Of a DNA stretch of 64,000 bases, positions 7,610-21,445 are shown in pieces. Numbering within the stretch: the first letter of the stretch is position 1; each line of letters begins with the position of its first letter. Position numbers and translations under genes: made by a program. The stretch is from assembly GCA_038227875.1 (NCBI GenBank), contig JBBRPR010000038.1, positions 19,309 to 83,308 of the forward strand, written 5' to 3'. Source of the DNA: Planctomycetota bacterium. Lineage in GTDB: Bacteria; Planctomycetota; SZUA-567; H5-PLA8. The notes under the pieces were generated by a model. It was not told where the DNA came from. It saw nothing but the letters and a program-made list of their open reading frames with translations, and did not search any database.

Positions 7610-7918
7610 CTACTCCGCCTTTTCCGCCGCCGAAACCTTGATGTTCGCGTCGTCGATCTTCGAGCCCGTCAGTTTTACTTTCAGTCCCTTGGCCGCCCAG
7701 TCCTTCAGGTCTTTAGCCGTGTCGCTGTCGGCCCACACATTCACGACCACGTCTTTCGCGCCTTCCTTGAACGTCAGCGTTGCTACGACTCCTTCTTTTG
7801 CGCCCGCCGGGGCCGCCGCCAGCGTGCCCGTCCAGACCTGATTGATCGCACTGGCCGGCGCCGACAGCAGCAGTAAAAACACCAGCGCCAGCGGCACCGC
7901 CTGATTCATTCGTCGCAT
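7610..7918 (-). CDS. Small secreted hypothetical protein (102 aa)
   Basis: Signal peptide (LALVFLLLLSAPASA), beta-rich mature part, tight spacing inside the operon. Confidence 0.8.
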   Translation of the reverse strand: MRRMNQAVPLALVFLLLLSAPASAINQVWTGTLAAAPAGAKEGVVATLTFKEGAKDVVVNVWADSDTAKDLKDWAAKGLKVKLTGSKIDDANIKVSAAEKAE

Positions 7919-7929
7919 CGCGTCATCCT

Positions 7930-9111
7930 TTATTTTCGCTTCAGCACAAACCGAGCGTTGGCGTTCAGCACGTTCCGGCTGACTTTGTAGAGCACCTTCG
8001 GCTGATCGATGTACACCTGGTTGCTCAGCGTCAGACTGATCGGCAGCGACGCCATCGCGCCGGCCTTGGGCGTGGCCACGTTGGTCAGGCCGCTGGCCGC
8101 GAGCGCCGCCGCAAAGTCGCCGCGGAGGAAGAAGTTGATCTTCACCGGCCCGCCGAAGAACTGTTTCCGGATCAGTTTGCGGACGAGCGAGAAGCGATTG
8201 GTGCCGGACTTGCCACGTCCGTTCTTATCCATCGTGAATGTCGCCGTCACATTCCCCACAGCGACCTGCACCGTTTGTTTCAGCGGATTGAATCCCGCCG
8301 GCAGCGTCACCAGGCCGAAGACCTGAATTCGGTCGCGGCCCTTGATCTTGAAGTTTAAATTGATGCTCGCGCGCGTGACCGTCCACGGCAGCACCGTCGG
8401 CGGAATCACTGCCGCGCCCTGCGAAACCTTGACCAGCATCGGCACCAGCAACACGCCTCCGAAGCCATCGGTGACCGTGATCGTTGCCAGGTACGAATTG
8501 GCCGTGGGATAGTTATGCTGAACCGTCGCCCCGCTGCCAAACGTCCCATCGCCAAAATCCCACGAATAGTTCAGCGTCGCCCCGACCGGGCTCGTCGCCA
8601 GACACGTGAAGTTGACCATGTCCGCCGTCGTCGGCGCCGCCGGAGAAAAACTCGGATTGATCGTAAACACCGGCGGAATATCGCCGTAGTTGAAGGCCAG
8701 GCCGGAGCCCTTAGGTATCGGCACGTTACCGGGTGTGCGGAACACGTTGTCGAAGAGAGCCACCCGCTTGGCGCCGAAACTGTTCAGCGAACCATCGTAA
8801 AGTATATTGAGCGTGCGAGCGTCGGCCCAGACCAATTGACGCGCGGTCAGGCCGGCAGGCAGCAGGACCTGCTTAATGTCGATCTGCGTGATATTCATGT
8901 CTTCGCTAAAGACGAATTGAATCTGAGGTGTGGCGCTGGTGATTGTCGAACCGTCCGTCGGAAGTGTTGAGATAATGACCGGCGCGTTTCCGGTTCGGTT
9001 CGCGACCGTCGCGCTGATACCGACTCCCAGACCTGAATTCTTGCTTGCTGCCGCAAATACAGACGAAGCTGTTAGAGTTGCCAGCAGGCAAAGAATCCAA
9101 GATCTAAACAT
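7930..9111 (-). CDS. Secreted Ig-like (Big_5-type) + PKD domain protein with shared C-terminal domain
   Basis: Signal peptide; P-x-DG...FSEDMN Ig motif; PKD motif YSWDFGDG...HNY...Y.ATITVTDG; basic C-terminal domain shared with three other proteins in the window. Confidence 0.85.
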   Translation of the reverse strand: MFRSWILCLLATLTASSVFAAASKNSGLGVGISATVANRTGNAPVIISTLPTDGSTITSATPQIQFVFSEDMNITQIDIKQVLLPAGLTARQLVWADARTLNILYDGSLNSFGAKRVALFDNVFRTPGNVPIPKGSGLAFNYGDIPPVFTINPSFSPAAPTTADMVNFTCLATSPVGATLNYSWDFGDGTFGSGATVQHNYPTANSYLATITVTDGFGGVLLVPMLVKVSQGAAVIPPTVLPWTVTRASINLNFKIKGRDRIQVFGLVTLPAGFNPLKQTVQVAVGNVTATFTMDKNGRGKSGTNRFSLVRKLIRKQFFGGPVKINFFLRGDFAAALAASGLTNVATPKAGAMASLPISLTLSNQVYIDQPKVLYKVSRNVLNANARFVLKRK

Positions 9112-9157
9112 AACCAGGCCTTTTTCACAGTTGCATCATCAAGAAGTAGCGCACTTT

Positions 9158-10096
9158 TCACGGCTTTTTGGCCGGCGCAATGTCCGCGAGTGGTTGCAGC
9201 GCGATAATCGATCGCGCCCGCAGAAAATCAGTTACTTTGCCTTTCTCATCGGCGACAAAAACCAGCTCTTCATAGTTCTTGCCGCGCACTGCTGAGGAGG
9301 GCACGTTCACTTTCAACGATAGAGCTTTGGATTCACCCGCTTTCAAGGTGAAGGGCTTGTCCATTTCGATCCATTCGTCTTTTAGCACCGGTGTGCAACC
9401 TTTGCCGTAATAGCGTTCGTGGTGTCCGACTTCCTTTTCCACCTCGCCGATCCGCTTCAACGAGTATGTGTGTTCCTCTTTCGAATTATTCGTGAATTTG
9501 GTCAGCACCGTCCAGAACGTTCCTGGTTGCGTCTCCGGCATTTCCAGTATGGAAGGAATTACCGTCGTTTCGCCAAGCGCTTCTTTCGACATCGGTTCGG
9601 CGAGCGTTTCCAATTGAACTCGTGATGCAACTTGCAAGCCAACAACGCCCGTCGCATTGGCTTTACCAGGGCTGCAGCAGACCACAACCATCCATTTTTG
9701 ATTGTACAATTCTGGTTTGTCGGGAACTTTAACGAACAAGTTCACTTTGCCTTCGGATTTGGCCGGGACTTCCAACTCTTCTTTATCCAGCGAGCACCAA
9801 GCAGCATCAGGAATGTCACGGTATCCCAGTTCCCAAGAACCTAGAACGCCAGAAACCTTCCTCACAGCGATGTTGAAAACCTGCGCCTTGTCCGTACCGT
9901 TGTAGACAATGAATGAGCCTGTACCCGCGAAGACATCGACCTTGTCGGCTCCGGGGCGAATGTTCTCGACCAGAACCATTCCTGGCCCGATGCCAAATCC
10001 GGTTCCACCTTCAGCACCCCACGCTGGCGAGGTCGTAACTAGAACTGCCAGCACGATTACGAAAGAGCGAAATAAGGAAGAAGATGGAATGTGCAT
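9158..10096 (-). CDS. Secreted two-Ig-domain protein, chaperone-like (PapD/DUF916-like)
   Basis: Signal peptide ending SPAWG-A; two repeats of P..l...pG..N.....F/Y...W...l.a.e...V.VP......Y; sits directly downstream of the four paralogous subunits. Family assignment is inference. Confidence 0.7.
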   Translation of the reverse strand: MHIPSSSLFRSFVIVLAVLVTTSPAWGAEGGTGFGIGPGMVLVENIRPGADKVDVFAGTGSFIVYNGTDKAQVFNIAVRKVSGVLGSWELGYRDIPDAAWCSLDKEELEVPAKSEGKVNLFVKVPDKPELYNQKWMVVVCCSPGKANATGVVGLQVASRVQLETLAEPMSKEALGETTVIPSILEMPETQPGTFWTVLTKFTNNSKEEHTYSLKRIGEVEKEVGHHERYYGKGCTPVLKDEWIEMDKPFTLKAGESKALSLKVNVPSSAVRGKNYEELVFVADEKGKVTDFLRARSIIALQPLADIAPAKKP

Positions 10097-10178
10097 GCGT
10101 GTGCCCCTCAGAAAAGAGGACTTCCTCTCAAAAATTTAATTTGGCAAATTCCGGCAAAAACGTCCATGCGAGTATCCC

Positions 10179-11033
10179 TCAGTTAGCCGTTGCCGTCAAT
10201 GTAACGTTGTACTGATTCAGCACTCCCGCGTTTCCGGCCGTCACTGTGGTGGGGTTGTCCACTTCCAACACCAAGGGCATGTCGGTGGCAGTGGTCAAGT
10301 TCACGGTCAGATTCTGAGCGGTAAACAGAGAGGTGGGCGCGACACCGTTCATTCCGCCTTTGATGGCCACGACGTTTGGACCGGCCGCGGCGGCGAGATT
10401 GAAAGGCCCTGCAGTCTTCACAGCAATAGCGCTGATGGTGCAGGCACTGCCTGTGGCCGAGACATTCGAAACGTTGATCGTTTTGTTGTTTTGCGCATCG
10501 TCGCTGCGGTAGATCGTGGCGAGGTCTGTCTGACTAGCCGCCAATAGCGTGCTGTCCTTGACGGTCCACGCATAGTTGGAAACCCGATTGGCGGGCTGGG
10601 TATGATCCACGGACCCATCGTCCGGCGTAGTGCCGTTACCCCACTGAATCTGGGCGCGCTTGGAAACGGTGGTGCTAACGACGACAACCAACTGGTTGTT
10701 GCGGGAGACATACGTGTAGAAATTAGCGGCGGATACCGTGCCATTGACCGTAACCGTCACGGCGCCGGCCGATCCCGCGGGGGTCAAGGCGACATCCAGC
10801 GTGTTGTTGGCCACATTCACTGCGGTCACGGTTGCCGAGGTGGCGCCAAAGAGAACGGTATTGCTGGCAGGTGTTGCATTGATCGCAATACCGGAGGTGA
10901 AAATTCGCACGAGCTGGCCGCCTGTGGCGGGTCCGCTGTTAGGGGAGATCGAGTTGACGGTAGCTGCGAAGGTGTTGCCGAGCGAAGCGAGGAGAAGAAG
11001 CAGCGCAAGTTTGAACGTTCGGGTCATCGTCAT
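10179..11033 (-). CDS. Secreted IPT/TIG + conserved C-terminal pilin-like domain protein (paralog 4)
   Basis: Signal peptide; ISPNSGPATGGQLVRI IPT motif; C-domain KRAQIQWG...VTLTATAN. Confidence 0.88.
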   Translation of the reverse strand: MTMTRTFKLALLLLLASLGNTFAATVNSISPNSGPATGGQLVRIFTSGIAINATPASNTVLFGATSATVTAVNVANNTLDVALTPAGSAGAVTVTVNGTVSAANFYTYVSRNNQLVVVVSTTVSKRAQIQWGNGTTPDDGSVDHTQPANRVSNYAWTVKDSTLLAASQTDLATIYRSDDAQNNKTINVSNVSATGSACTISAIAVKTAGPFNLAAAAGPNVVAIKGGMNGVAPTSLFTAQNLTVNLTTATDMPLVLEVDNPTTVTAGNAGVLNQYNVTLTATAN

Positions 11034-11074
11034 TGAGTCCGCGTTTCAGGAAGTGTTGTCCCAAACAAACAAAG

Positions 11075-11101
11075 GTGGCGCCGTGCAATTCCCGGCGCCA
11101 C
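11075..11101 (-). terminator. Intercistronic hairpin / partial terminator
   Basis: 9-bp stem GTGGCGCCG/CGGCGCCAC followed on the minus strand by CTTTGTTTGTTTG. Confidence 0.55.
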
Positions 11102-11114
11102 ACTCGATCGATTC

Positions 11115-11987
11115 TTAGTTCGCCGTCGCTGTCATCGTCACGTTGTAGGTATTCAGCACGCCGGCGTTACCAGAAGTGACCGTGGTCGGCGTGTCGAATT
11201 CCAGAACCAGCGGCTGATCGGTCGTGGTGAGCAAACTTCCCGTCAATGTCTGAGCGGTGAACAGCGAAGTGAGTGCACCAGCGCCCATTGCTCCTTTGAT
11301 CGCGACAACGTCGGGACCGGCGGTGGCCGCGAGATTGAAGTTACCGGCCGTCTTGGTGGCAATCGCACTGATCGTGCAGGCATTTCCAGTCGACGAAACA
11401 TTGGAGACGTTGATCGTCTTGTTGTTTTGCGCATCGTCGCTGCGGTAGATCGTGCCTAGATCGGTCTGGAGCGAAGCCAGCAGCGTGCTGTCTTTCACCG
11501 TCCAGGCGTAATTGGAGATGCGGTTGGCAGCCAGTGTATGGTCGACAGCACCGTCGTCAACCGTTGTGCCAGTACCCCACTGGATCTGTGCGCGCTTGGC
11601 CACTGTATCGCTGACCACCACGACGAGCGTGTTGTTGCGAGAAACGAACGTATACAACGTATTTGCCACATTGGTGCCATTTGCGTTGGTGACCGTGACG
11701 CTCAGGTTCGCGCCCGCTACGGCTGCCAACGTCGTAAAGTCGCAGGTAGTGGTGGTCGCTGCACTGGCGGGAATGCCACCGGCGGGGAGACCGTTGATTT
11801 TGACCAGGTTGTTCGCCGCGGTGGTATCGAAATTGGTGCCGTAAATTCGAATGAGCTGCCCGCCGGCAATTGGACCGCTATTCGGCGAAACAGCCGTGAC
11901 GGTGGGGACGGCAGCGAGAGCCTGGCTGGACATGCCAACGGCGGCCACGACGGCTACAGCTAGAATGAGTGAGTTCAACTTTTTCAT
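11115..11987 (-). CDS. Secreted IPT/TIG + conserved C-terminal pilin-like domain protein (paralog 3)
   Basis: GGAG RBS; signal peptide MKKLNSLILAVAVVAAVGMSSQALA; IPT motif VSPNSGPIAGG; ends NVTMTATAN. Confidence 0.9.
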   Translation of the reverse strand: MKKLNSLILAVAVVAAVGMSSQALAAVPTVTAVSPNSGPIAGGQLIRIYGTNFDTTAANNLVKINGLPAGGIPASAATTTTCDFTTLAAVAGANLSVTVTNANGTNVANTLYTFVSRNNTLVVVVSDTVAKRAQIQWGTGTTVDDGAVDHTLAANRISNYAWTVKDSTLLASLQTDLGTIYRSDDAQNNKTINVSNVSSTGNACTISAIATKTAGNFNLAATAGPDVVAIKGAMGAGALTSLFTAQTLTGSLLTTTDQPLVLEFDTPTTVTSGNAGVLNTYNVTMTATAN

Positions 11988-12031
11988 GTCCGCTTCTCCA
12001 AGGTGTCTACTATTTCAAGTCTTGAAAGAAC

Positions 12032-12060
12032 CGCCCGCAGTCGTTACACGACTGCGGGCG
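12032..12060 (-). terminator. Intercistronic hairpin
   Basis: Perfect 13-bp stem CGCCCGCAGTCGT/ACGACTGCGGGCG with a 3-nt loop just after the paralog 2 stop; weak U-tract. Confidence 0.55.
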
Positions 12061-12076
12061 TTGGCACCGGTCTAGG

Positions 12077-12955
12077 TTAGTTGCCCGTGGCAGTCAAGGT
12101 CACGGTGACGACGGCGGTCTGGCCCTGATTTCCATTTGTAATGGTGGTCGGGGAATCAAATTCCAGGACGAGAGGCTGGTCTGAACCAACCGTTAGATTG
12201 TTCGTCAATGTTTTTGCAGTAAACAGGTTCTTCATTGCAGTGTTGTTCATTTCGCCGCTGACTGAAATGACGTCAGGAGCAGCCGCAGCAGCCAACGTGT
12301 AAGGTGCGCCACCCGTCGCAATTGCACTGATGGTGCAGCTCGAACCGGCAATCGAAGAGACGTTCGAAACGTTGATCGTCTTGCCATTGTTGAAATCGTC
12401 GCTGCGGTAGTTGGTTGCCAAGTCGATCTGTTGCTTGCCAGCGATTACGCCAATCGAGTTGTCTTTTACCGTCCAAGCGTAGTTGGTGATGTAATCGGCA
12501 GCCACCGTGTGATCGACGGAGGCATCGTCCACCGTCGTTCCTGTGCCCCACTGGATCTGCGCACGATTGGCCACTGTCGCGCTGATCTGCACAACCAGCT
12601 TGTTGTTACGAGAAACAAATTTGTAATTGACTGCGCCGCCACTCTGAGTGCTGGCGCCTGAAGAATTGGTATTTACAACAACCAAGCCTGAACCAGTCGT
12701 GGTCGTTGCCAGGGTTGTGCAGGTAAGCTGCGTCGCGGTTGCAGCCGTGACCGTGACAGCCACGCCGTTCAATGTCACGACGTTATTGGCTGCCGTCGTG
12801 TCGAATCCCGAGCCATAGATACGAACAAACTGACCGCCACCGGACGGGCCGCTGGTAGGCGAAATCGCGGTCACATCGGATACTGCTGCGAACGCGCTAC
12901 CGGATACCACCATCGCCGCCAAAACCATCACCACCTTCAGTAAGTTCGTCTTCAT
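12077..12955 (-). CDS. Secreted IPT/TIG + conserved C-terminal pilin-like domain protein (paralog 2)
   Basis: Start moved to ATG 12955 (MKTNLLK, AAGGAG RBS upstream); IPT motif ISPTSGPSGGG; ends VTLTATGN. Confidence 0.9.
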   Translation of the reverse strand: MKTNLLKVVMVLAAMVVSGSAFAAVSDVTAISPTSGPSGGGQFVRIYGSGFDTTAANNVVTLNGVAVTVTAATATQLTCTTLATTTTGSGLVVVNTNSSGASTQSGGAVNYKFVSRNNKLVVQISATVANRAQIQWGTGTTVDDASVDHTVAADYITNYAWTVKDNSIGVIAGKQQIDLATNYRSDDFNNGKTINVSNVSSIAGSSCTISAIATGGAPYTLAAAAAPDVISVSGEMNNTAMKNLFTAKTLTNNLTVGSDQPLVLEFDSPTTITNGNQGQTAVVTVTLTATGN

Positions 12956-13078
12956 CCCCGCGTCTCCTTTGCAAAAGCTCCTAGGTTGTAAAGTTTTCAC
13001 AGTATCCGAGTGCCGGTGGTTCCAATTCTGTTTCAAGTTTGACTTCCCTCCCCCACGCCGTGCGCGGTGCCCGTTTGG

Positions 13079-13921
13079 TTAGTTCGCTGTAGACACCAGC
13101 GTCACTGTTGAAGTCTGTGCCACTCCTGCCGCCGCCGCCGTAATGCTCGTTGGCGTCGCCATCTCCAGTACCAGCGCTTGGTCCGTACCCTTGACCAGTG
13201 CGTTGGTCAGCACTGTTGGCGCGGCGCTCAGTGCCACCGGAGCCGCGCCGCCCAGGGACGCGCGCAGACGAAAGGTGTTTGCTCCTGCGGCGGCGCCAAT
13301 GGTCCAGGACGCGGTGTTGGTGGCGATGGCATTGATCGTATTCGTGGCGTTGGTGGGCGAGATATTCGAGAGGTTGATGACCTTGTTATTCAACGCATCG
13401 TTGCTTTGGTAGACCGTGTTTACGTCCGCGTTCACGCCCAGCGAACTGTCTTTTACAATCCACATATAGTTGGTGATGCGGTTGGCACCGACAGTGTGGT
13501 CGACACCCGCGTCGTCGACGCTTGTACCGTTGCCCCACTGGATGTCGGAGCGCTTCGGGATCGTCAGCACCACGGACACCTGAACATTAACGTTTCCGTT
13601 CGTGTATGTGTAGCCATTCGCCAGCGTCGAGGTTCCGATTCCCGCTCCGTTGGTCACCGAGATCGTGACGTTGCCGACGGTGTGAGCGGGAACTACAGCG
13701 CTGATTGTAGCGTCGTCGATCACTGTAAAAGTCGCAGGCGAGATGCCGAAGGTGACGCCAGTTGCCGCACCATTGTTAAAGTTTGAACCAGAGATCGTCA
13801 CCGTCGTGCCGCCATTGATCGTGCCCGAATTCGGAACCACGCCAGAGATCGTCGGCACAGCGGCCCCGAATGCAGCGCGGGTCATGAACGCGAAGATGAA
13901 GATCAAGGTGCCGGTTTTCAC
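13079..13921 (-). CDS. Secreted IPT/TIG + conserved C-terminal pilin-like domain protein (paralog 1, most divergent)
   Basis: Probable GTG start at 13921 (AAGGA upstream); canonical IPT PTISGVVPNSGTINGGTTVTISGSNF; ends VTLVSTAN. Confidence 0.88.
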   Translation of the reverse strand: MKTGTLIFIFAFMTRAAFGAAVPTISGVVPNSGTINGGTTVTISGSNFNNGAATGVTFGISPATFTVIDDATISAVVPAHTVGNVTISVTNGAGIGTSTLANGYTYTNGNVNVQVSVVLTIPKRSDIQWGNGTSVDDAGVDHTVGANRITNYMWIVKDSSLGVNADVNTVYQSNDALNNKVINLSNISPTNATNTINAIATNTASWTIGAAAGANTFRLRASLGGAAPVALSAAPTVLTNALVKGTDQALVLEMATPTSITAAAAGVAQTSTVTLVSTAN

Positions 13922-14020
13922 GTGTGACTTTTCCTTCTCGATTGCACTGGTGCTGAGCTCGCGATGCAAATTGAATCAATTTGCGACTCAACTGTTTTGT
14001 TCTTCGGACGACGTCTGTAT

Positions 14021-14036
14021 TGCAAACGAGACACCA
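14021..14036 (-). promoter_or_regulatory. Putative sigma-54 (-24/-12) promoter of the surface-protein operon
   Basis: Minus strand TGGTGTCTCGTTTGCA = GG-N10-GC, about 100 bp upstream of the first gene. Confidence 0.6.
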
Positions 14037-14553: not shown

Positions 14554-16311
14554 TCACTGCTCGCTGAACGCCGCGCGCACTTTCGCTTCGATCTCCGGCG
14601 ACTTCTCGAAGTAGTGCTTCGCCAGATCCGGCTTGCCGGCGAGCAGGCAGAAGAACGCAGCCGTCGCGCGATCGGGCGAGTCGTCTTGTGCGACGCCGGC
14701 AGCGAGCGTCATCAGGTCGCTGGGGGCGAGTTGCTCCCACGCGTAATCCATTTCGCCGCCTTCGTTGAATTTCAACTTCATCTTGCCGTCGGCATCGCAG
14801 GTCTGAACTTGTCCGCCGGCGTGGAGCGCGGCGATCTCCAGTTTCGGATGTCCGCCATCGCTGATCGATTTCACGACCGCGTCTTTCAGTTTCGCTTTGA
14901 AGTTGTCGAGCGCCGTGGTGTCGCTGAGCTTCAGCGCTTTTGGTTTTGCTGCGACGGCGGTGCCCGTCGAAGTAGACGTCGACGTCGAGCTCGTCGTCGC
15001 CGCATCGTCTCCCTTCGCGCCATCGCCCAATTTTTTCAACGCGGGAATTTTTGACGCGGCAACCGCTTTGCCCAGGATCGGGCAGGGCTGCTTGTAGTAC
15101 TCGCCCACGCGCAGGCGGATGTACCCGCCGTCATCGTCGGCGTACTGCGCGGTGTTGCCGAGCGTCCCTGGAATCGCGTCGGGATTGGTGATGCCGTCCT
15201 TCTTCGCGTCCCACGCGCAGGTACTCTCGCCCTGCCCGCCCTGAAAAAGCCAGCCGCAGTATCCGGCTTGAACGTAGCGCGCGATCGTGTTGTTCTTTGG
15301 GTAGTCCTCGAGCAGCAGTTGCGCGAGATTGTCGCATTCGTGGCCGGGCGTGTTGTTGCAGGTTTTGAAGTAGGTGTTGCCCATTGCGACCTGCCAGACG
15401 ACGACGTAAAGTCCGGACGCTTCGTGAAATTCGGAGATCCACTTGATGTGGTTTTCGAGATTGCCGGTGACGCCAATCTTGTTCGCGTACGGCGGTTTCT
15501 CATTCGCCGCGCCTTTGTCACGGTCGGATGTTTCGAATGTCGCCAGCTCGTACTTGTCGGCGCAGAGCGCTTTAAACAGCGCGCCCAGTTTTTTGCCGCT
15601 CATCGAATTCTGCCAATCCCAGCCCGACGGATTGCACGCCAGCAAAACGTTATTCGGCGAATAGAGATCGCGCAGTTTCGCGAACGCCGCCGCCCAGCCG
15701 AATTCGTTATCGGGAAGGCCTTTCAGTTCGTCCATGCCGCAGCTGCCGACTTTCACGTCGACCTTATTCGGATCCATGCCGCCGCTGAGCAGCAAGTGGC
15801 ACCACTCATCGGGCTCGATCTGAATGACCACGACAGTGTCGGGATGCTTCGCGCAAATCTGCAGCAGCCGTTTGAAGTTCGTGAAGTACGCCTTCATCGT
15901 CGTCGCGATTTTGGCGTTGGCGGGCGTCGCCTGTGCGGGGCCTGGCTTGTAATGAGCAGGGGCCGACTGGGCCAGCGCGTACCACGTGTACCAGACCACG
16001 CAGCCGATGCTGGGGCCTTCCTTGAGCATGTTGTCGGCGGCGCCGTACTTGATCCACCACGGATCTTCCGGATCGCCCGCGCCGCCAGAAATGTAGGCGT
16101 CGCGGATATCCCAGCGCGCGCCGTTTTTCTCGATGGTCTCCTTCATCCAATCAATCGGTGCGGGAATGCCCCACATGAAATGGTCGAGCAGCCGGTCGTG
16201 CAGAATTTTCTGACGCCGCGCCTTCGCCCCGTCTTCCTCGCTCGCGCGTAGCGAGAAAGTCAGCATCGCGGCCGTGGCCATCGCAAAAAGTACAAGACGC
16301 AGAATCCGCAC
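14554..16311 (-). CDS. Secreted putative glycoside-hydrolase-like (TIM-barrel) protein with low-complexity linker and helical C-terminal domain
   Basis: Probable GTG start at 16311 (GAGG RBS, signal peptide); aromatic/acidic motifs such as IQIEPD and VWQVAMGN; S/T-rich linker. Function is inference. Confidence 0.7.
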   Translation of the reverse strand: MRILRLVLFAMATAAMLTFSLRASEEDGAKARRQKILHDRLLDHFMWGIPAPIDWMKETIEKNGARWDIRDAYISGGAGDPEDPWWIKYGAADNMLKEGPSIGCVVWYTWYALAQSAPAHYKPGPAQATPANAKIATTMKAYFTNFKRLLQICAKHPDTVVVIQIEPDEWCHLLLSGGMDPNKVDVKVGSCGMDELKGLPDNEFGWAAAFAKLRDLYSPNNVLLACNPSGWDWQNSMSGKKLGALFKALCADKYELATFETSDRDKGAANEKPPYANKIGVTGNLENHIKWISEFHEASGLYVVVWQVAMGNTYFKTCNNTPGHECDNLAQLLLEDYPKNNTIARYVQAGYCGWLFQGGQGESTCAWDAKKDGITNPDAIPGTLGNTAQYADDDGGYIRLRVGEYYKQPCPILGKAVAASKIPALKKLGDGAKGDDAATTSSTSTSTSTGTAVAAKPKALKLSDTTALDNFKAKLKDAVVKSISDGGHPKLEIAALHAGGQVQTCDADGKMKLKFNEGGEMDYAWEQLAPSDLMTLAAGVAQDDSPDRATAAFFCLLAGKPDLAKHYFEKSPEIEAKVRAAFSEQ

Positions 16312-16450
16312 GGCGTACCTCTTAAAGGTGAACTCACTAGTGCTGACGAAACGCCGCGCAGAAACTTGGGTCGATTTACATAGGGGCGTTGGCTTCTTGC
16401 ATGTGTTATTTGACGTGTCATAGTTACTACGCCATCGGGGAGAAAACCGC

Positions 16451-17623
16451 GTGTTTCGAATTCTGCTGCTTACCCTCCTCTGCCTGCCACTGATTCTTCG
16501 CGCGGAATCCGAACCCACGAAACCGGAGCTCAAGCCGCTGGCGCAACGCATCGCGGATCGCGCATTTCCGTCGGTCTTTCAAGCCTGGAGCCCCGCCGAC
16601 AATTTGAAGGGCGAAGACCGCTTCGTCACGATGGCGCGGCACGACCTGGTATTTCATTCCGCGCCTTCCTTTCTCAATCTGGCGTGGAAAGAGGCCAGCG
16701 CGGGTCTGGGGACGGAGTTCACTACAGAGAGCGTCGGCAGGGCAAAAATTATCCGCGACAAAATGCGCGCGTTGAATCCCAATCAGATTTTCCTTTCAGA
16801 AGTCCGCTACCGTGACGCGTGGGATGCGTATCTTCCCGCCGATCATAAATGGTGGAAACGCAAACCCGATGGCCAGCGCGTCCCGGGCTGGGAAGAAGGC
16901 AAGTTCTACATTCTCGATTTCCAGAACGCGGAATTCCGCGCTCACGTCGCGCGGCAATGCAAGGCGATCGTCGAGACCGGACTGGCCGACGGTGTCATGC
17001 TGGATTGGTGGGAAGACGACGAGGACCGACTCGCGCTGATCAAAGCCATTCGCGCAGCCATCGGCGAGCAGGCGTTGATCCTGGTGAACGCCAACGACCG
17101 CCAGATTCCGCGGACGGCGCAATTTATCAACGGCGTGTTCATGGAGTGCTACCGTAGCAAATCCGCCGACGATTGGGCGCGGATAGAAACGACGCTCGCC
17201 TGGGCCGAAGAACATTTACGCCAGCCGCGCATCAATTGCGTGGAGACCTGGTACGAAAAGTCGCGCCAGGATCTCAACCGCATGCGCGCCACCACGACGC
17301 TCAGTTTGACGCGCTCCGACGGCTACTGCCTTTTTTCTGATCCCAACGAATTACCCTCGCCGGACCACCTTCACGATTGGTATCCGTTCTGGGACAAAAG
17401 CCTCGGCAAGGCGACCGGTAAGGGAAAGCTCCGACCCGACGGCGCATGGGAACGCGACTACGAACGCGGCAGCGCCGTCTACAATTCTGCTTCCAATACA
17501 GCCGTGAAGATCACATTCGATTTCGACCGAACCAGCGCAGCGTCCGGAACAAAAGCGCGCGAGTTCACGCTCCCACCACTGGACGGCGATCTATTCCTGA
17601 AGCCCGACGAGCCGAAAAAATAG
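16451..17623 (+). CDS. Secreted putative glycoside hydrolase (GHL15-like)
   Basis: GGAG RBS; signal peptide; DGVMLDWW, NGVFME, WYPFWDKSLGKA and WERDYERGSAVYN motifs. Confidence 0.8.
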   Translation: MFRILLLTLLCLPLILRAESEPTKPELKPLAQRIADRAFPSVFQAWSPADNLKGEDRFVTMARHDLVFHSAPSFLNLAWKEASAGLGTEFTTESVGRAKIIRDKMRALNPNQIFLSEVRYRDAWDAYLPADHKWWKRKPDGQRVPGWEEGKFYILDFQNAEFRAHVARQCKAIVETGLADGVMLDWWEDDEDRLALIKAIRAAIGEQALILVNANDRQIPRTAQFINGVFMECYRSKSADDWARIETTLAWAEEHLRQPRINCVETWYEKSRQDLNRMRATTTLSLTRSDGYCLFSDPNELPSPDHLHDWYPFWDKSLGKATGKGKLRPDGAWERDYERGSAVYNSASNTAVKITFDFDRTSAASGTKAREFTLPPLDGDLFLKPDEPKK

Positions 17624-17641: not shown

Positions 17642-20600
17642 TCATTCGCCCATCAGTATCAGGTCGCCCACCGTATCGATCTGCTTGGTGTGCGGGTTGC
17701 CGAACCATCCGATGAAACCCGTGCGCCCCTTGCCGTCGTCTTCGTTCACGATCATCGACAGCCCCAGATTCGCGCCCGCGACGGGCTTGAACGGAGCGAG
17801 GCGCGACCAGGGAATCGCCAGCTCGTAAACCATGCCGCCCTCGCGCGGTTTGGCGGCGACCACGATGTCCGTCAGCGCACCCACCGGCGTCGAACTGCTG
17901 CCGGAAAGAAAACACCACGCTTGCGGACCCTTCTTGCCCAGCGCCATGCCCAGATCGTACTTGCCCGACTTCTCGCTCGATTCGCGCTTCGGATCGATCA
18001 GAAATTGCAGCCCGTCGCCCGCCCAGAGTTCGCCGTCCTGCTTCGTGTTGGAGAAGACGTCGTCGCTCACGTCGACCGCGACGTACAGAAATTTCTCGTC
18101 CCACAAGTAGCGCATCGTTGCCGACAGATCCGCCGCGCCCTTCCACAGCACGTCCTTGTCGAGCGTGAAGTACTGCTGCTTCTGGTCGAGACGCTGAACC
18201 GGGGCGCGCTTCCAATCGGCTTCGTCGAGCACCCCGTCGATCGACGGCGGCGCAGCCACTTTCGGCACCGCGACGAAACCGCCGAGCATCCGTTCAGCCG
18301 TGAGATTGCCGCCGCTGGCGTCGGTGATCGTCGCGGTCACGGCATAGAGCTTGATCGGGTCGGCGCCGGATACCGGCACACTCACCGCGGCCTCCTGCTT
18401 GGCCGGCACAGTCAGCGTTCCGGTCGTGGCCTCGCTGAAAAACGCCTGCGTCGCCGTCTGCGCCGCGTACTGGCCGTCGATGAGGCTGCGTTCGCCGCTC
18501 AGTGAGATGGACCACGTCAGCGTCTGGGTGTCCGCGGAAAAATTGTGCACGAGAATCTTCGCCGCGGACTTGCCGTCCGCAGCCGCGGGCACGGGTCGCA
18601 CGTCGATCGTCAAATGTCCCGAGAGCGCCGGCCGGAAAGAAAGCTCGCCGGTAATTCCGCCCGCCGCATTGGCCACGCGGATCAGAATTTCACCCTCACG
18701 CACCGCGCTGGTTTCCGGTGACGTAATGGTGAAGCGAAGCGGCGTGCCTGGGGTCGTCTCCACCTTCCAGCCCAGCGGCGCAAGCAGTGAGACCAGCTTC
18801 GCATCCACGGTTCCCGCGACGTCGACCGTCGCCGGTACGCCGCGCACCATCGTGACCGGAATCCCGCTCAGCGAAACGGCCGGCTCGCCCAGCGCATCCG
18901 GCAGGTCCGCCGCGCCGTCGAAATTCAACAGCAGCGGATCCTCGTTCAGCGTCAACGTCAGTCCCTTGCCTTCTGCGTCCAGCGCGGAGCGTCGGCCGTC
19001 AATGTGAATCGCCTGCACCGCTTTGACATCCTTCAGCGCGACGAAGATATCCTTGCGCCCCTTGTCCTTCCACAGCACCGCGAACGCATGCTGCTCCGCG
19101 TCGCGGAAGAGCACGGCGTGGATCCCGTCGGCGTAGTTGCGCTCGGTCGAGAATTTCTTGATGCCGATGCCGTTGACAAGATTGTAGAGCGTCACCGCGT
19201 CCAGCCGCGCGGCGTACTTGCAGTAACGGCTGTCGAAGATGTTCATCGCGTCGCCGGAGCTGCCGAAGTTCTGCGCATCGTTGTCGGGGTAGAGAAAATC
19301 GAACCACGAAATATTTGCGCCGCCCGCCGCGAAGAAAACCGCGAACTTCCGGATCATGTCGCCGGCGATGTGCTGCCGCGTCAGGCCTTGACTGTTGAGG
19401 CCGATTTCCGTCGACCAGATCGGCTTGACGCAGTTGTATTTCTTCATCAGCGCCTGATAGCTCTTGATCGCCTCGCGCACATTCTCCGGCGCTTCGTAGA
19501 CGTGAAAATCGAAGGCGTCGCAGGCGTTCTGGTATCCGGCCTGAAAATATTCCTCGGTCGGCGGCACCGACGTCGCCAGCACGATAATCGTCGGGTCGAT
19601 CTTCTTCATTTCGTCGTAGACGATCGTGTACGCGTGAACGCTCTCCTTGAGACGCTCGCCTTTGTTGTTCGGCTCATTTCCCAGGTCGATGATCAGCGGC
19701 CGGTTCTTGCCGAACGTCGCGACGAAATTGCGCGCGCCTTCGCGCAAGGCTTTCTCGTCGTACTTTTCATAGCCGCCGTGATGTCCTTCGATCGTTCCCG
19801 ACGGACAACCCGTCAGGACTCCCATGTTCAGTTCCGTGCAGACGTCGTACATCGGCGCGTCCGGTTTGTATGGCGGCGTAGCAGACCAGCCGCCCCAAAG
19901 CCCGGCAACGCGAATGCCGACACGGTCGGTCAGGCGGATGTATTCCGGAAAGCGGTTGTCCCAATTGCGCGAGGTAAATGGAATCTGATCGGCCTTGAAT
20001 TTCTTATTCGGCGCTTCGGGCAGAATCACGAAGCCCGCGAAGTTCTTGAAGGGATCGCCCTCTCCCAGCGGCACTTCCGCGTGGACTTCGTAATAGCGTC
20101 CAATTTCCAGCGGCGCACCCGCCAGATCAATCTGGCCTTCGTAAACGAGCCGATTCTTGTTCTTGCCCTTCGCCGCCACCACGAGCGAACCGGCCGCCGT
20201 CTGCTCCGCGCCCCAGTAATCGCGTACGATCCAGGAGAGTTTGCGTTCTGCTTCCGTCAGTTCGCGATACGATTCAACCGTAATCGAAAACGTGCGCGGA
20301 TCGTCCGGATGAAACATATTTCCCAACTGCGGCGAGGCGAACACCACGCGGTTGACCACCGGAGCCCGCACGCTGCTGCCCGCCGACGACGCGGTGAGCG
20401 CATCGACCCAGAAGCGCCCCTCGCATTTGTTTAACCGCACTGAAAAACGTGCGGCCGCCGCCTGCTTCGGAATCTCCACGCGCTTGCGTGCCAGTTGCCA
20501 CGCGTGTTTGCCGAAGAGTTCGCCCACCGTGTGCGTCTCGATCTGTTTGCCCGACGCGTCGAAAATTTCAAATGAGACCATTCCGTTGAACGACGAATCC

Positions 20601-21445
20601 GGCGACGTCAGTTCCGACTTCAGCGCGCATGAAACCGTCCACTGCCCGGGCGTCACCGGAAATTTCGCGCCTTCCGCCGAGCACGGTTTTTCAATATCCG
20701 CCGCGGAGCGCTGCACCAGCAGCGCATGTTTGCCCTGAAACGCATCTTTCGGATCGATCGAGATTGCGCCTTCGCTCTTCCACTCGGGCGGCACCGTCGC
20801 CGCGTCCTCAAAGTCGCAGGAGTACGTCGCGGTGTGGGAACTGGCCGAGACGCCCGAGACCCAGATTTTCAGCGGTGTCTTGCCGTCGCCGATTCTTCCC
20901 AGCAGCAGCACAATCAGGTTCAGCTTGCCGTGCCACTTGCCATCGTTGGCGCCGCCCCAATGCTCGTACTTCGCGACGCCCTTCACCGCTTCAGCCGTGC
21001 CCTGGTTGGCGAAAAAGCGTTCGACGGGAAATGTCACCAGCCGCCAGTCGTCGGAGACCGGATCGAAGTGCAGCGAAATCTGATGGCATTGCTTCGAGCC
21101 GTCGATCAGGCGCATGCCAATGCCCGAGACGCCCGGCGCTTTGATCCAGAACGAGAGCGCCGACAAATTCAAATTCAGCGCCGCGACATCGCGGCTCATC
21201 TGCACGTAATTGCCGCCGCCGGTGAAATCGCCGCTCAGCCGCAAGCTCTCGCGGCCGTCGTGTTTCACCTCCGCGTCGGCCTCGAGTTCGCCTTTCGCGC
21301 CAGGAAATTCGCGGCCGTTATCGAACGCCCAGCCCAGCGCCGGCTTTCCCGAGACCAGCAGCTGCACGTCCTGCTCCGCGCGCACGGAGGACAGTGTCGA
21401 CAGTGCCACTGCAATCAGGACCACGATTGGCATTCGCATACACAT
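17642..21445 (-). CDS. Large secreted glycoside hydrolase (clan GH-A, GH39-like) with N-terminal CBM-like modules and a C-terminal CBM9-like domain
   Basis: Signal peptide; LGNEP (acid/base), DFHVY, PIWSTEIG (nucleophile); C-terminal IDGVLDEADW...WDEKFLYVAVDVSDD...YELAIPW. Confidence 0.85.
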   Translation of the reverse strand: MCMRMPIVVLIAVALSTLSSVRAEQDVQLLVSGKPALGWAFDNGREFPGAKGELEADAEVKHDGRESLRLSGDFTGGGNYVQMSRDVAALNLNLSALSFWIKAPGVSGIGMRLIDGSKQCHQISLHFDPVSDDWRLVTFPVERFFANQGTAEAVKGVAKYEHWGGANDGKWHGKLNLIVLLLGRIGDGKTPLKIWVSGVSASSHTATYSCDFEDAATVPPEWKSEGAISIDPKDAFQGKHALLVQRSAADIEKPCSAEGAKFPVTPGQWTVSCALKSELTSPDSSFNGMVSFEIFDASGKQIETHTVGELFGKHAWQLARKRVEIPKQAAAARFSVRLNKCEGRFWVDALTASSAGSSVRAPVVNRVVFASPQLGNMFHPDDPRTFSITVESYRELTEAERKLSWIVRDYWGAEQTAAGSLVVAAKGKNKNRLVYEGQIDLAGAPLEIGRYYEVHAEVPLGEGDPFKNFAGFVILPEAPNKKFKADQIPFTSRNWDNRFPEYIRLTDRVGIRVAGLWGGWSATPPYKPDAPMYDVCTELNMGVLTGCPSGTIEGHHGGYEKYDEKALREGARNFVATFGKNRPLIIDLGNEPNNKGERLKESVHAYTIVYDEMKKIDPTIIVLATSVPPTEEYFQAGYQNACDAFDFHVYEAPENVREAIKSYQALMKKYNCVKPIWSTEIGLNSQGLTRQHIAGDMIRKFAVFFAAGGANISWFDFLYPDNDAQNFGSSGDAMNIFDSRYCKYAARLDAVTLYNLVNGIGIKKFSTERNYADGIHAVLFRDAEQHAFAVLWKDKGRKDIFVALKDVKAVQAIHIDGRRSALDAEGKGLTLTLNEDPLLLNFDGAADLPDALGEPAVSLSGIPVTMVRGVPATVDVAGTVDAKLVSLLAPLGWKVETTPGTPLRFTITSPETSAVREGEILIRVANAAGGITGELSFRPALSGHLTIDVRPVPAAADGKSAAKILVHNFSADTQTLTWSISLSGERSLIDGQYAAQTATQAFFSEATTGTLTVPAKQEAAVSVPVSGADPIKLYAVTATITDASGGNLTAERMLGGFVAVPKVAAPPSIDGVLDEADWKRAPVQRLDQKQQYFTLDKDVLWKGAADLSATMRYLWDEKFLYVAVDVSDDVFSNTKQDGELWAGDGLQFLIDPKRESSEKSGKYDLGMALGKKGPQAWCFLSGSSSTPVGALTDIVVAAKPREGGMVYELAIPWSRLAPFKPVAGANLGLSMIVNEDDGKGRTGFIGWFGNPHTKQIDTVGDLILMGE

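Follow-up and report, generated by a model that had tools for sequence, protein, structure and literature searches.

A planctomycete gene cluster that probably encodes a chaperone-primed donor-strand exchange pilus

Introduction

How would a fibre built by strand exchange cross the outer membrane of a bacterium in which no usher is found? This question is raised by a gene cluster in a stretch of 64,000 nucleotides (hereafter the window) from a Planctomycetota bacterium (assembly GCA_038227875.1, contig JBBRPR010000038.1, positions 19,309 to 83,308). The window lies inside contig C38 of the source genome, G000 (9.3 Mb, completeness 88%). The minus strand carries all seven genes of the cluster and part of an adhesin gene: four tandem paralogs encoding secreted subunits (S1 to S4), a gene for a protein with two immunoglobulin-like (Ig) domains, one for a protein with a PKD domain and one for a small secreted protein of 102 amino acids (aa). 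An initial annotation of the sequence had recognised this co-oriented set, including an adhesin of more than 2500 aa, and had suggested a surface structure polymerised by strand complementation. The gene set is as described there, and the complete adhesin has 3270 aa.

Planctomycetota have two membranes. In Gram-negative bacteria, chaperone-assisted strand exchange is known to operate with an usher. Chaperone-assisted strand exchange without an usher is known from single-membrane cells, according to the available parts of two 2026 preprints (10.64898/2026.10.17.759780, PMC13278184). Here, we propose that the cluster probably encodes a chaperone-primed donor-strand exchange pilus, in which the tip comes first, then the shaft and finally the base. 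The sequences themselves show a split into proteins with a donor strand only, with a donor strand and an acceptor domain, and with an acceptor domain only; they also show the gene order and yield no usher match. The question of how the fibre crosses the outer membrane arises because the host phylum has two membranes, the cluster has all four parts of such a system and no usher was found.

Subunits and their predicted polymer

Each of the four paralogs has one IPT/TIG domain above the Pfam cut-off (E 1.5e-15 to 1.1e-6), followed by a domain of 175 aa (the C-domain) that matched no Pfam or NCBIfam family. The initial annotation had likewise reported IPT/TIG domains followed by a domain that it could not assign, and the motifs that it quoted are present in our alignment. 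Pairwise identities among S1 to S4 range from 45 to 81% for the C-domains and from 31 to 50% for the IPT domains. The C-domains of S3 and S4 are 81% identical, and S1 is the most divergent paralog.

We modelled the S3 monomer using AlphaFold2 with 59 homologs. The model has a predicted local distance difference test (pLDDT) score of 91.5, with the IPT domain ending at residue 115 and a beta-sandwich extending from 135 to 289. Residues 116-134 have a pLDDT of 84-97, yet pair with nothing. The oligomer model consisted of three copies of residues 114-290, with the IPT domain left off. It scored 0.74, against 0.01 for the best of three controls, with at least 90% contact agreement between runs and a partner pLDDT of at least 90. 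The corresponding mark is reached by 20/30 true one-chain pairs and by 1/23 single chains, counts that hold only roughly for S3 because the alignment was made for this analysis and the model contains three copies. Residues 115-132 of one copy sit in the next copy, parallel to strand 159-164 on one side and antiparallel to the last strand (281-288) on the other, with donor residues 121-125 pairing antiparallel with residues 285-281 of the neighbour. V123 and V125 contact W162 and L262, which are two of the three near-invariant residues among the 59 homologs and both line the predicted groove. No confident contact involves the scored copy's own groove, in keeping with an open chain. The free strand of S3 is thus predicted to insert head to tail into the next copy, and the C-domain is predicted to comprise a donor strand and an incomplete Ig domain, rather than a domain complete in the monomer.

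These models support strand complementation, as initially suggested, with a change in the assignment of the strands. The donor would be the LVVxVSxTV strand at the start of the C-domain, while the terminal VTLTATAN strand would line the receiving groove. In all full-length hits (85/85, those that cover the model to its end), the C-domain ends at most five residues before the C-terminus, a position that would suit a chaperone holding on to this terminus. In the Elr pilus, scrambling the last strand reduced binding, according to the available part of that report (10.64898/2026.10.17.759780).

Of pilin-type folds, the C-domain matched only that of AbpA (7ueg; Foldseek E 3.6e-4; Z 7.0, root-mean-square deviation (rmsd) 3.6, 123 aligned residues) and that of Saci_0406 threads (7pnb; Z 7.1, rmsd 7.5, 138 aligned residues), both of which form donor-strand filaments. 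A further subunit fold search returned IPT matches only; it listed no WxL, TasA, Csu or TLP-1 subunit, a result limited by the crowding of IPT matches. Comparison of the subunit sequence with those of solved structures also gave IPT matches only.

Base and tip

Beyond what the initial annotation had noticed, the PKD protein begins with a donor-like strand and the adhesin ends in an acceptor domain. In the PKD protein, NSGLGVGISATV directly follows the signal peptide and has a donor score of 16.5, against a maximum of 7.7 in 82 controls. The controls were the 87 open reading frames (ORFs) of the source genome bearing the same C-terminal tail, minus the base itself and four of at most 300 aa. 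Across the N-termini of 13 base genes, the best donor score has a median of 7.4 (against -0.7 for the 82 controls); 8/13 lie above the 90th percentile of the controls and 6/13 above their maximum. In one genome (G242) the motif LGVNITVTI is common to subunit and base. Base and subunit strands of one locus resemble each other more than strands paired by shuffling do (11 loci; 0/20000 shuffles reached this similarity, and 5/20000 without G242). A minimal base, made of a signal peptide, the strand and one small domain, is encoded at locus L081. With a donor strand and no groove, the PKD protein is likely to be the base, or terminator, of the fibre.

In two metagenome loci, the protein behind the chaperone has Fn3 repeats and carries its donor-like strand at the extreme C-terminus instead of the N-terminus (L068:8857-10914 and L069:4420-6714). 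The strand thus behaves as a portable element.

The basic tail of the base matched no Pfam or NCBIfam family. A profile of seven base tails retrieved the 87 ORFs mentioned above, in 74 of which the tail lies at most 25 residues from the end. Most of these ORFs encode large proteins with apparent signal peptides, which suggests that the tail could be a sorting or anchoring tag. None of the 13 bases has an LPxTG motif or a hydrophobic tail. As for type IX secretion, PorP/SprF (PF11751) was not found in our search, in which no control genome gave a match either.

The adhesin gene ends at G000:C38:17095, 2213 bases outside the window. When built from the four paralogs alone, a profile matches the final 100 residues of the adhesin (E 3.2e-8), and this tail aligns from column 19 of the pilin profile, past the donor strand (98%). 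A deeper pilin profile missed the adhesin in one filtered genome scan, and other profile searches found it. Upstream of the domain, the donor score has a median of -4.5 and a maximum of 0.1 in 10 tips; in 19 subunits, each left out in turn, the median is 14.2 and the minimum 3.3. With a groove and no donor strand, the adhesin is likely to be the tip.

Other large proteins have varied N-terminal cargo and end in a donor strand and an acceptor domain (P0026, P0034, P0029, P0046, P0019, P0020 and P0027). They are likely to be cargo-bearing shaft subunits, in which case the IPT domain is one instance of a general slot before the donor strand. Since this slot takes IPT domains and far larger cargo, the fibre would be a natural scaffold for multivalent display. 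Acceptor-only tails also occur on unlinked large ORFs of 528-3993 aa (G159:C9, G393:C86, G393:C240, G257:C45 and G255:C7), which are possible alternative tips.

The likely chaperone

The two-Ig protein is encoded in a single copy in the genome, and its model (pLDDT 92.0) shows two Ig domains. Its best structural match is WxLIP (9i1y; Z 11.7, rmsd 3.5, 121 aligned residues, 22%, domain 1 only). The chaperones of chaperone-usher systems match it at Z 8.7-10.0, among them YadV (10.0), SafB (9.7), CupB2 (9.5), EcpB (9.2) and CsuC (8.9). Its sequence gave nothing significant against solved structures (WxLIP E 1.4-1.6). Domain 1 ends in a low-confidence loop followed by a conserved alternating strand, VVGLQVASRVQLET, with an invariant Arg. 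From the aligned ranges and the available part of the Elr paper (10.64898/2026.10.17.759780), we infer that this strand is at about the position of the ElrE donor strand. These models suggest that the two-Ig protein is likely to be a chaperone that would bind the subunits, and its initial description as a chaperone-like partner holds up.

Matches to known chaperone families are weak. PF06030 scores 20.6 bits on the two-Ig protein, below the cut-off of 27.3, and is found at E ≤0.1 in 28/38 of its homologs (best 8.3e-6). PF11797 is absent from the 22 families matched by these 38 homologs, and PapD_N (PF00345) has no match in the source genome, with positive controls. In the last 70 residues, 0/38 homologs exceed a hydropathy of 1.6 (maximum 1.03), as would be needed for a membrane helix. 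Three homologs in the family f19 clusters start, by eye, with what looks like a lipoprotein signal, accompanied by a linker rich in Pro/Ala (L057:4861-5946, L059:9515-10648 and L061:5702-6739), and these may be tethered to the membrane by a lipid.

Conservation of the cluster

The cluster is conserved, and the order subunit-chaperone-base recurs across Planctomycetota. In the sample of relatives, the pilin domain is found in 6/41 genomes, all within the bacterium's own family. In the sample of the phylum, the chaperone and the pilin are each found in 10/401 genomes and both together in 8; since these loci had supplied the pilin profile, what is informative is that no more than two other genomes matched. 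Among 17 genome loci with a chaperone, a pilin gene is directly upstream in 13 (three are cut by the contig end and one is divergent) and a gene starting with a donor strand is directly downstream in 13 (two have none, one is cut and one has a secretin). All four roles are on one contig in 9/17. Among 26 metagenome loci, two of which duplicate genome loci, 22 have the pilin upstream. The downstream gene is visible in 18 of them, and by eye a donor-like strand starts its product in 12, ends it in 2 and does neither in 4. Related clusters mostly contain only one subunit gene. Close homologs of the two-Ig protein carry Planctomycetota labels, and distant pilin homologs include two proteins labelled Omnitrophota (10 of 87 were looked up).

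Export

We searched for known machinery that could bring the fibre across the outer membrane. The usher (PF00577) has no match in the cluster, in the source genome (88% complete) or in any of five cluster-bearing relatives (89-96% complete), with a positive control in E. coli. A very divergent usher elsewhere in the genome is possible. The initial annotation had pointed to the genes downstream of the adhesin as a place for an outer-membrane channel, and none is there: the adhesin is followed by a 231-aa ORF and then by a 1673-aa secreted protein on the opposite strand. The cluster has no signal peptidase gene. The WxL domain (PF13731) has no match in the source genome, with a positive control in Lactococcus; it is absent from the four paralogs and from the families listed for the 59 homologs (25 of 28 listed). 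A language-model atlas gave a weak lead to WxL, with a value of 0.90 to a cluster with 20% WxL.

The source genome encodes nine secretins, one of them among genes that read, by eye, like a type II secretion cluster. A divergent cassette in another genome (positions 6994-11452 of L062, G287:C89:1000-12818) has a secretin (PF00263, E 4.5e-45) right behind a 413-aa chaperone-like protein, together with three small secreted proteins, each with an N-terminal strand and a terminal strand. We rejected this cassette as a member of the same family, given that its subunits are not detectably related (0.4%) and its chaperone only weakly (66%). It is possibly a secretin-exported strand-exchange pilus of another family. 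In the G137 cluster, the gene at L056:5823-7964, between those of base and tip, encodes 713 aa that comprise a long acidic stretch at the N-terminus and an outer-membrane barrel of the Pom family (PF17251, E 1.7e-13); this barrel was seen in no other cluster. Since the usher has no match, the G287 subunits are not detectably related and the Pom barrel was seen in G137 alone, export through a secretin is a guess.

Proposed assembly and alternatives

We infer chaperone binding, the order of assembly, anchoring and export as follows, and polymer formation in the cell is itself a prediction from the models. Sec would carry all parts of the system, which have signal peptides without a lipobox, into the periplasm. 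There the two-Ig protein would fill the groove of each subunit with its own strand and grip the free C-terminus, as its fold and the terminal position of the C-domain suggest. The chain would begin with the adhesin, which would remain at the tip. S1 to S4 would add on, each strand lying antiparallel to the last strand of the preceding subunit (as predicted for S3), and the IPT domains would hang off the shaft, in keeping with the decorative role initially suggested for them. The PKD protein would end growth and hold the fibre by the basic tail that it has in common with many exported proteins. In the last and weakest step, the outer membrane would be crossed through general machinery, most plausibly one of the secretins of the genome.

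A number of observations weigh against this pilus. All structural evidence is prediction, and the complex model covers S3 with S3 only, without the IPT domain. The three-copy model may have passed because of its likeness to solved donor-strand filaments. The fold matches of the C-domain have Z values below 8 and may reflect a mere common arrangement, given that unrelated sandwiches reach 6.3-6.6; moreover, these searches used the IPT-bearing subunit, and IPT matches filled the lists. For the two-Ig protein, non-chaperones, namely ciliary ASH-domain proteins and a Vpr domain, come within 1 Z of WxLIP, and Foldseek puts ciliary proteins first (WxLIP E 4.9e-8, FimC 2e-7). Of the 13 base N-termini, 5 score no higher than controls do, and the best window of one has a shifted register. 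The registers for the strand-shuffle test were chosen by eye, and its genomes are kin, not independent. No base gene follows the chaperone in 4/18 metagenome loci and 2/17 genome loci. In family f19 the base has another C-terminal domain, which occurs about once in each genome (0-3 copies in 5 genomes). These copy numbers rule out that the base always ends in a genome-wide tag, and the anchor differs by lineage. Among 87 representatives, 7/16 proteins larger than 400 aa keep the donor strand (for example P0026 and P0034), so that large size does not always denote a tip. Finally, no export channel linked to the cluster was found.

The same chemistry could also yield a short defined stalk, in which one or a few copies of S1 to S4 join the base to the adhesin and raise it above the envelope. 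The diverged IPT domains of the four paralogs and the divergent S1 could be those of ordered adaptors, the adhesin alone is already 3270 aa long, and a short chain would pass a general export pore more easily. However, the single subunit gene of most related clusters points to a homopolymer, and S3 is predicted to accept its own strand. We consider such a stalk unlikely. It is very unlikely that the cluster encodes a matrix fibre of the TasA/AbpA type, polymerising unaided after export, with the two-Ig protein as nucleator, cap or scaffold. AbpA and the archaeal thread are indeed the best fold matches of the C-domain, PapD-like folds also occur in non-chaperones, and the available part of the AbpA report describes no chaperone or usher candidate (PMC9245690). 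Yet the two-Ig gene adjoins the pilin in 13/17 genome loci and 22/26 metagenome loci, WxLIP is the closest match of its product, which also bears a conserved alternating strand where the donor would be, and a signal peptidase gene is missing from the cluster. Least probable of all is a static and possibly periplasmic envelope complex, in which, as in the older idea of a WxL platform, the two-Ig protein would permanently stabilise a docking or wall-binding domain. That no usher or dedicated pore was found and that the domain closes unrelated large proteins would suit it, but it leaves unexplained why donor-only, donor-plus-acceptor and acceptor-only proteins exist side by side, why the donor strands of base and subunit match, and the head-to-tail model.

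If the donor-strand exchange pilus is the correct reading, a broader proposal can be made, which we hold only tentatively and regard as doubtful. The cluster may represent a third route in a two-membrane cell, with a soluble chaperone, a secretin in place of an usher, any cargo before the donor strand, and a donor-only base bearing a tag of some 74 large proteins. If so, the base is also a handle on an undescribed planctomycete surface-sorting system.

Comparison with known systems

The nearest parallel in logic is the WxL/Elr pilus of Enterococcus faecalis. The available part of its report describes a two-domain chaperone, a donor-plus-acceptor shaft, an acceptor-only tip, a donor-only base and no usher, and presents the system as confined to Bacillota (10.64898/2026.10.17.759780). 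Measured against that account, the planctomycete system appears to have the same four roles, a tip with variable payload and no usher match, with the acceptor-only tip and the donor-only base recognised by sequence. The donor runs antiparallel to the last strand of the acceptor in both, here in the predicted model only, and the top structural match of the chaperone is WxLIP. Unlike the WxL/Elr proteins described there, the planctomycete pilins lack WxL and the shaft subunits carry IPT domains; the chaperone is below the PF06030 cut-off and lacks PF11797 and a membrane helix; the base has a basic tail and no LPxTG; and the host has two membranes.

Pam pili of the Candidate Phyla Radiation (CPR) offer a parallel in subunit layout. 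According to the available text, their two-domain pilins have an N-terminal beta-sandwich, an internal linker donor strand and a truncated Ig domain; the system has PapD-like chaperones, an acceptor-only tip, a donor-bearing terminator and no usher, with Pam pilins in CPR only; and membrane helices anchor the chaperones and the terminator, in a cell without an outer membrane (PMC13278184). Compared by description, PamA/B are the nearest precedent for the planctomycete subunits, in which IPT takes the place of the N-terminal domain. In contrast with the Pam proteins as described, the planctomycete chaperone appears soluble, the base lacks a helix, and a giant PATR adhesin would form the tip. 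Neither PamA nor PamB surfaced in our general structure and fold searches, which were run without a Pam sequence or structure.

Chaperone-usher pili (type 1, P, CFA/I, Csu and Saf) also have a soluble chaperone with the two-Ig fold (a fold shared with non-chaperones), incomplete Ig subunits ending at their last strand and a tip adhesin without a donor strand. They differ from the planctomycete system in that the latter has no usher (PF00577) match in the source genome and five relatives, no PapD_N in the source genome, a donor strand placed after the IPT domain, and a donor-only base with a sorting-type tail. The AbpA bundling pili (PMC9245690), TLP-1 fibrils (PMC11494351) and Saci_0406 threads (PMC9715654) are donor-strand filaments, according to the available parts of these reports. 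The planctomycete C-domain would follow the filament logic of these fibres and of TasA, and 7ueg and 7pnb are its nearest solved folds, albeit weakly (Z ~7); the PapD-like chaperone candidate has no counterpart in the available descriptions of those fibres. The planctomycete system works like WxL/Elr and Pam pili and is a member of neither, because it has no WxL domain, no anchored chaperone, and neither an LPxTG motif nor a membrane helix in the base. Nor is it a chaperone-usher system. No description of a planctomycete donor-strand/chaperone pilus was found in the literature, searched mainly outside subscription papers and supplements. The cluster names testable parts for a planctomycete surface fibre and defines a pilin family and a chaperone family that were both unnamed so far. 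It also links a donor strand with a tag, so far undescribed, that is found on large secreted proteins by the dozen.

Gene coordinates and neighbouring genes

Table 1. Features of the cluster. Positions refer to the window unless a contig is given.
Feature	Position	Strand	Remarks
S1 pilin	13079-13969	-	signal peptide, IPT, donor strand 13565-13600, predicted incomplete-Ig acceptor domain
S2 pilin	12077-13036	-	layout as S1
S3 pilin	11115-11987	-	layout as S1; copy used for models
S3 donor strand, residues 115-132	11592-11645	-	free in monomer model, inserted into neighbour in three-copy model
S3 acceptor domain, residues 133-290	11118-11591	-	predicted groove
S4 pilin	10179-11033	-	layout as S1
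Likely chaperone, two PapD/ASH-type Ig domains	9158-10096	-	signal peptide; no C-terminal membrane helix
Candidate chaperone donor strand VVGLQVASRVQLET	9605-9646	-	last strand of domain 1; putative role from position relative to WxLIP
Likely base/terminator (PKD protein)	7930-9111	-	signal peptide, donor strand, Big_5, PKD, basic C-terminal tag; no acceptor domain
Donor-like strand of base, NSGLGVGISATV, residues 25-36	9004-9039	-	donor-pattern score
Lysine-rich C-terminal domain of base	7933-8406	-	no family name; 24 K+R, 4 D+E
102-aa secreted protein	7610-7918	-	co-oriented, probably accessory
Likely tip adhesin, first 2533 of 3270 residues	1-7599	-	15 PATR repeats
Adhesin C-terminal acceptor domain, without donor strand	G000:C38:17098-17532, beyond window	-	pilin profile
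13-pair hairpin between S2 and S3	12032-12060	-	terminator scan

The signal peptides suggest that S1 is likely to start at 13921 (280 aa) and S2 at 12955 (292 aa); the database protein P0006 has 292 aa, as expected for the latter start. Promoter and terminator scans of the region were near chance level, with 9 terminator-like sites against 9.1 expected by chance. Hairpins occur in both the S2/S3 gap (11988-12076) and the S3/S4 gap (11034-11114), of which the former alone passed the terminator scan. The S2/S3 hairpin is possibly an attenuator or an mRNA stabiliser, and the two gap hairpins could set subunit ratios.

Among the products initially grouped together, the 102-aa protein is probably outside the system. 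Its family is small, lysine-rich and secreted, without a Pfam match, and has three more paralogs in the source genome, all stand-alone (C116:2699-3115, C30:31528-32202 and C19:56794-57222). Because of these stand-alone paralogs and the lack of a match in related clusters, we rejected it as a core part.

Upstream of the cluster, on the same strand and 584 bases from S1, is a gene for a 665-aa protein without a Pfam match (14554-16551). Further upstream, also on the same strand, a gene for a 1267-aa protein (17642-21445) has CBM9 and weak glycoside hydrolase matches, and beyond it are GntR and AraC regulators.

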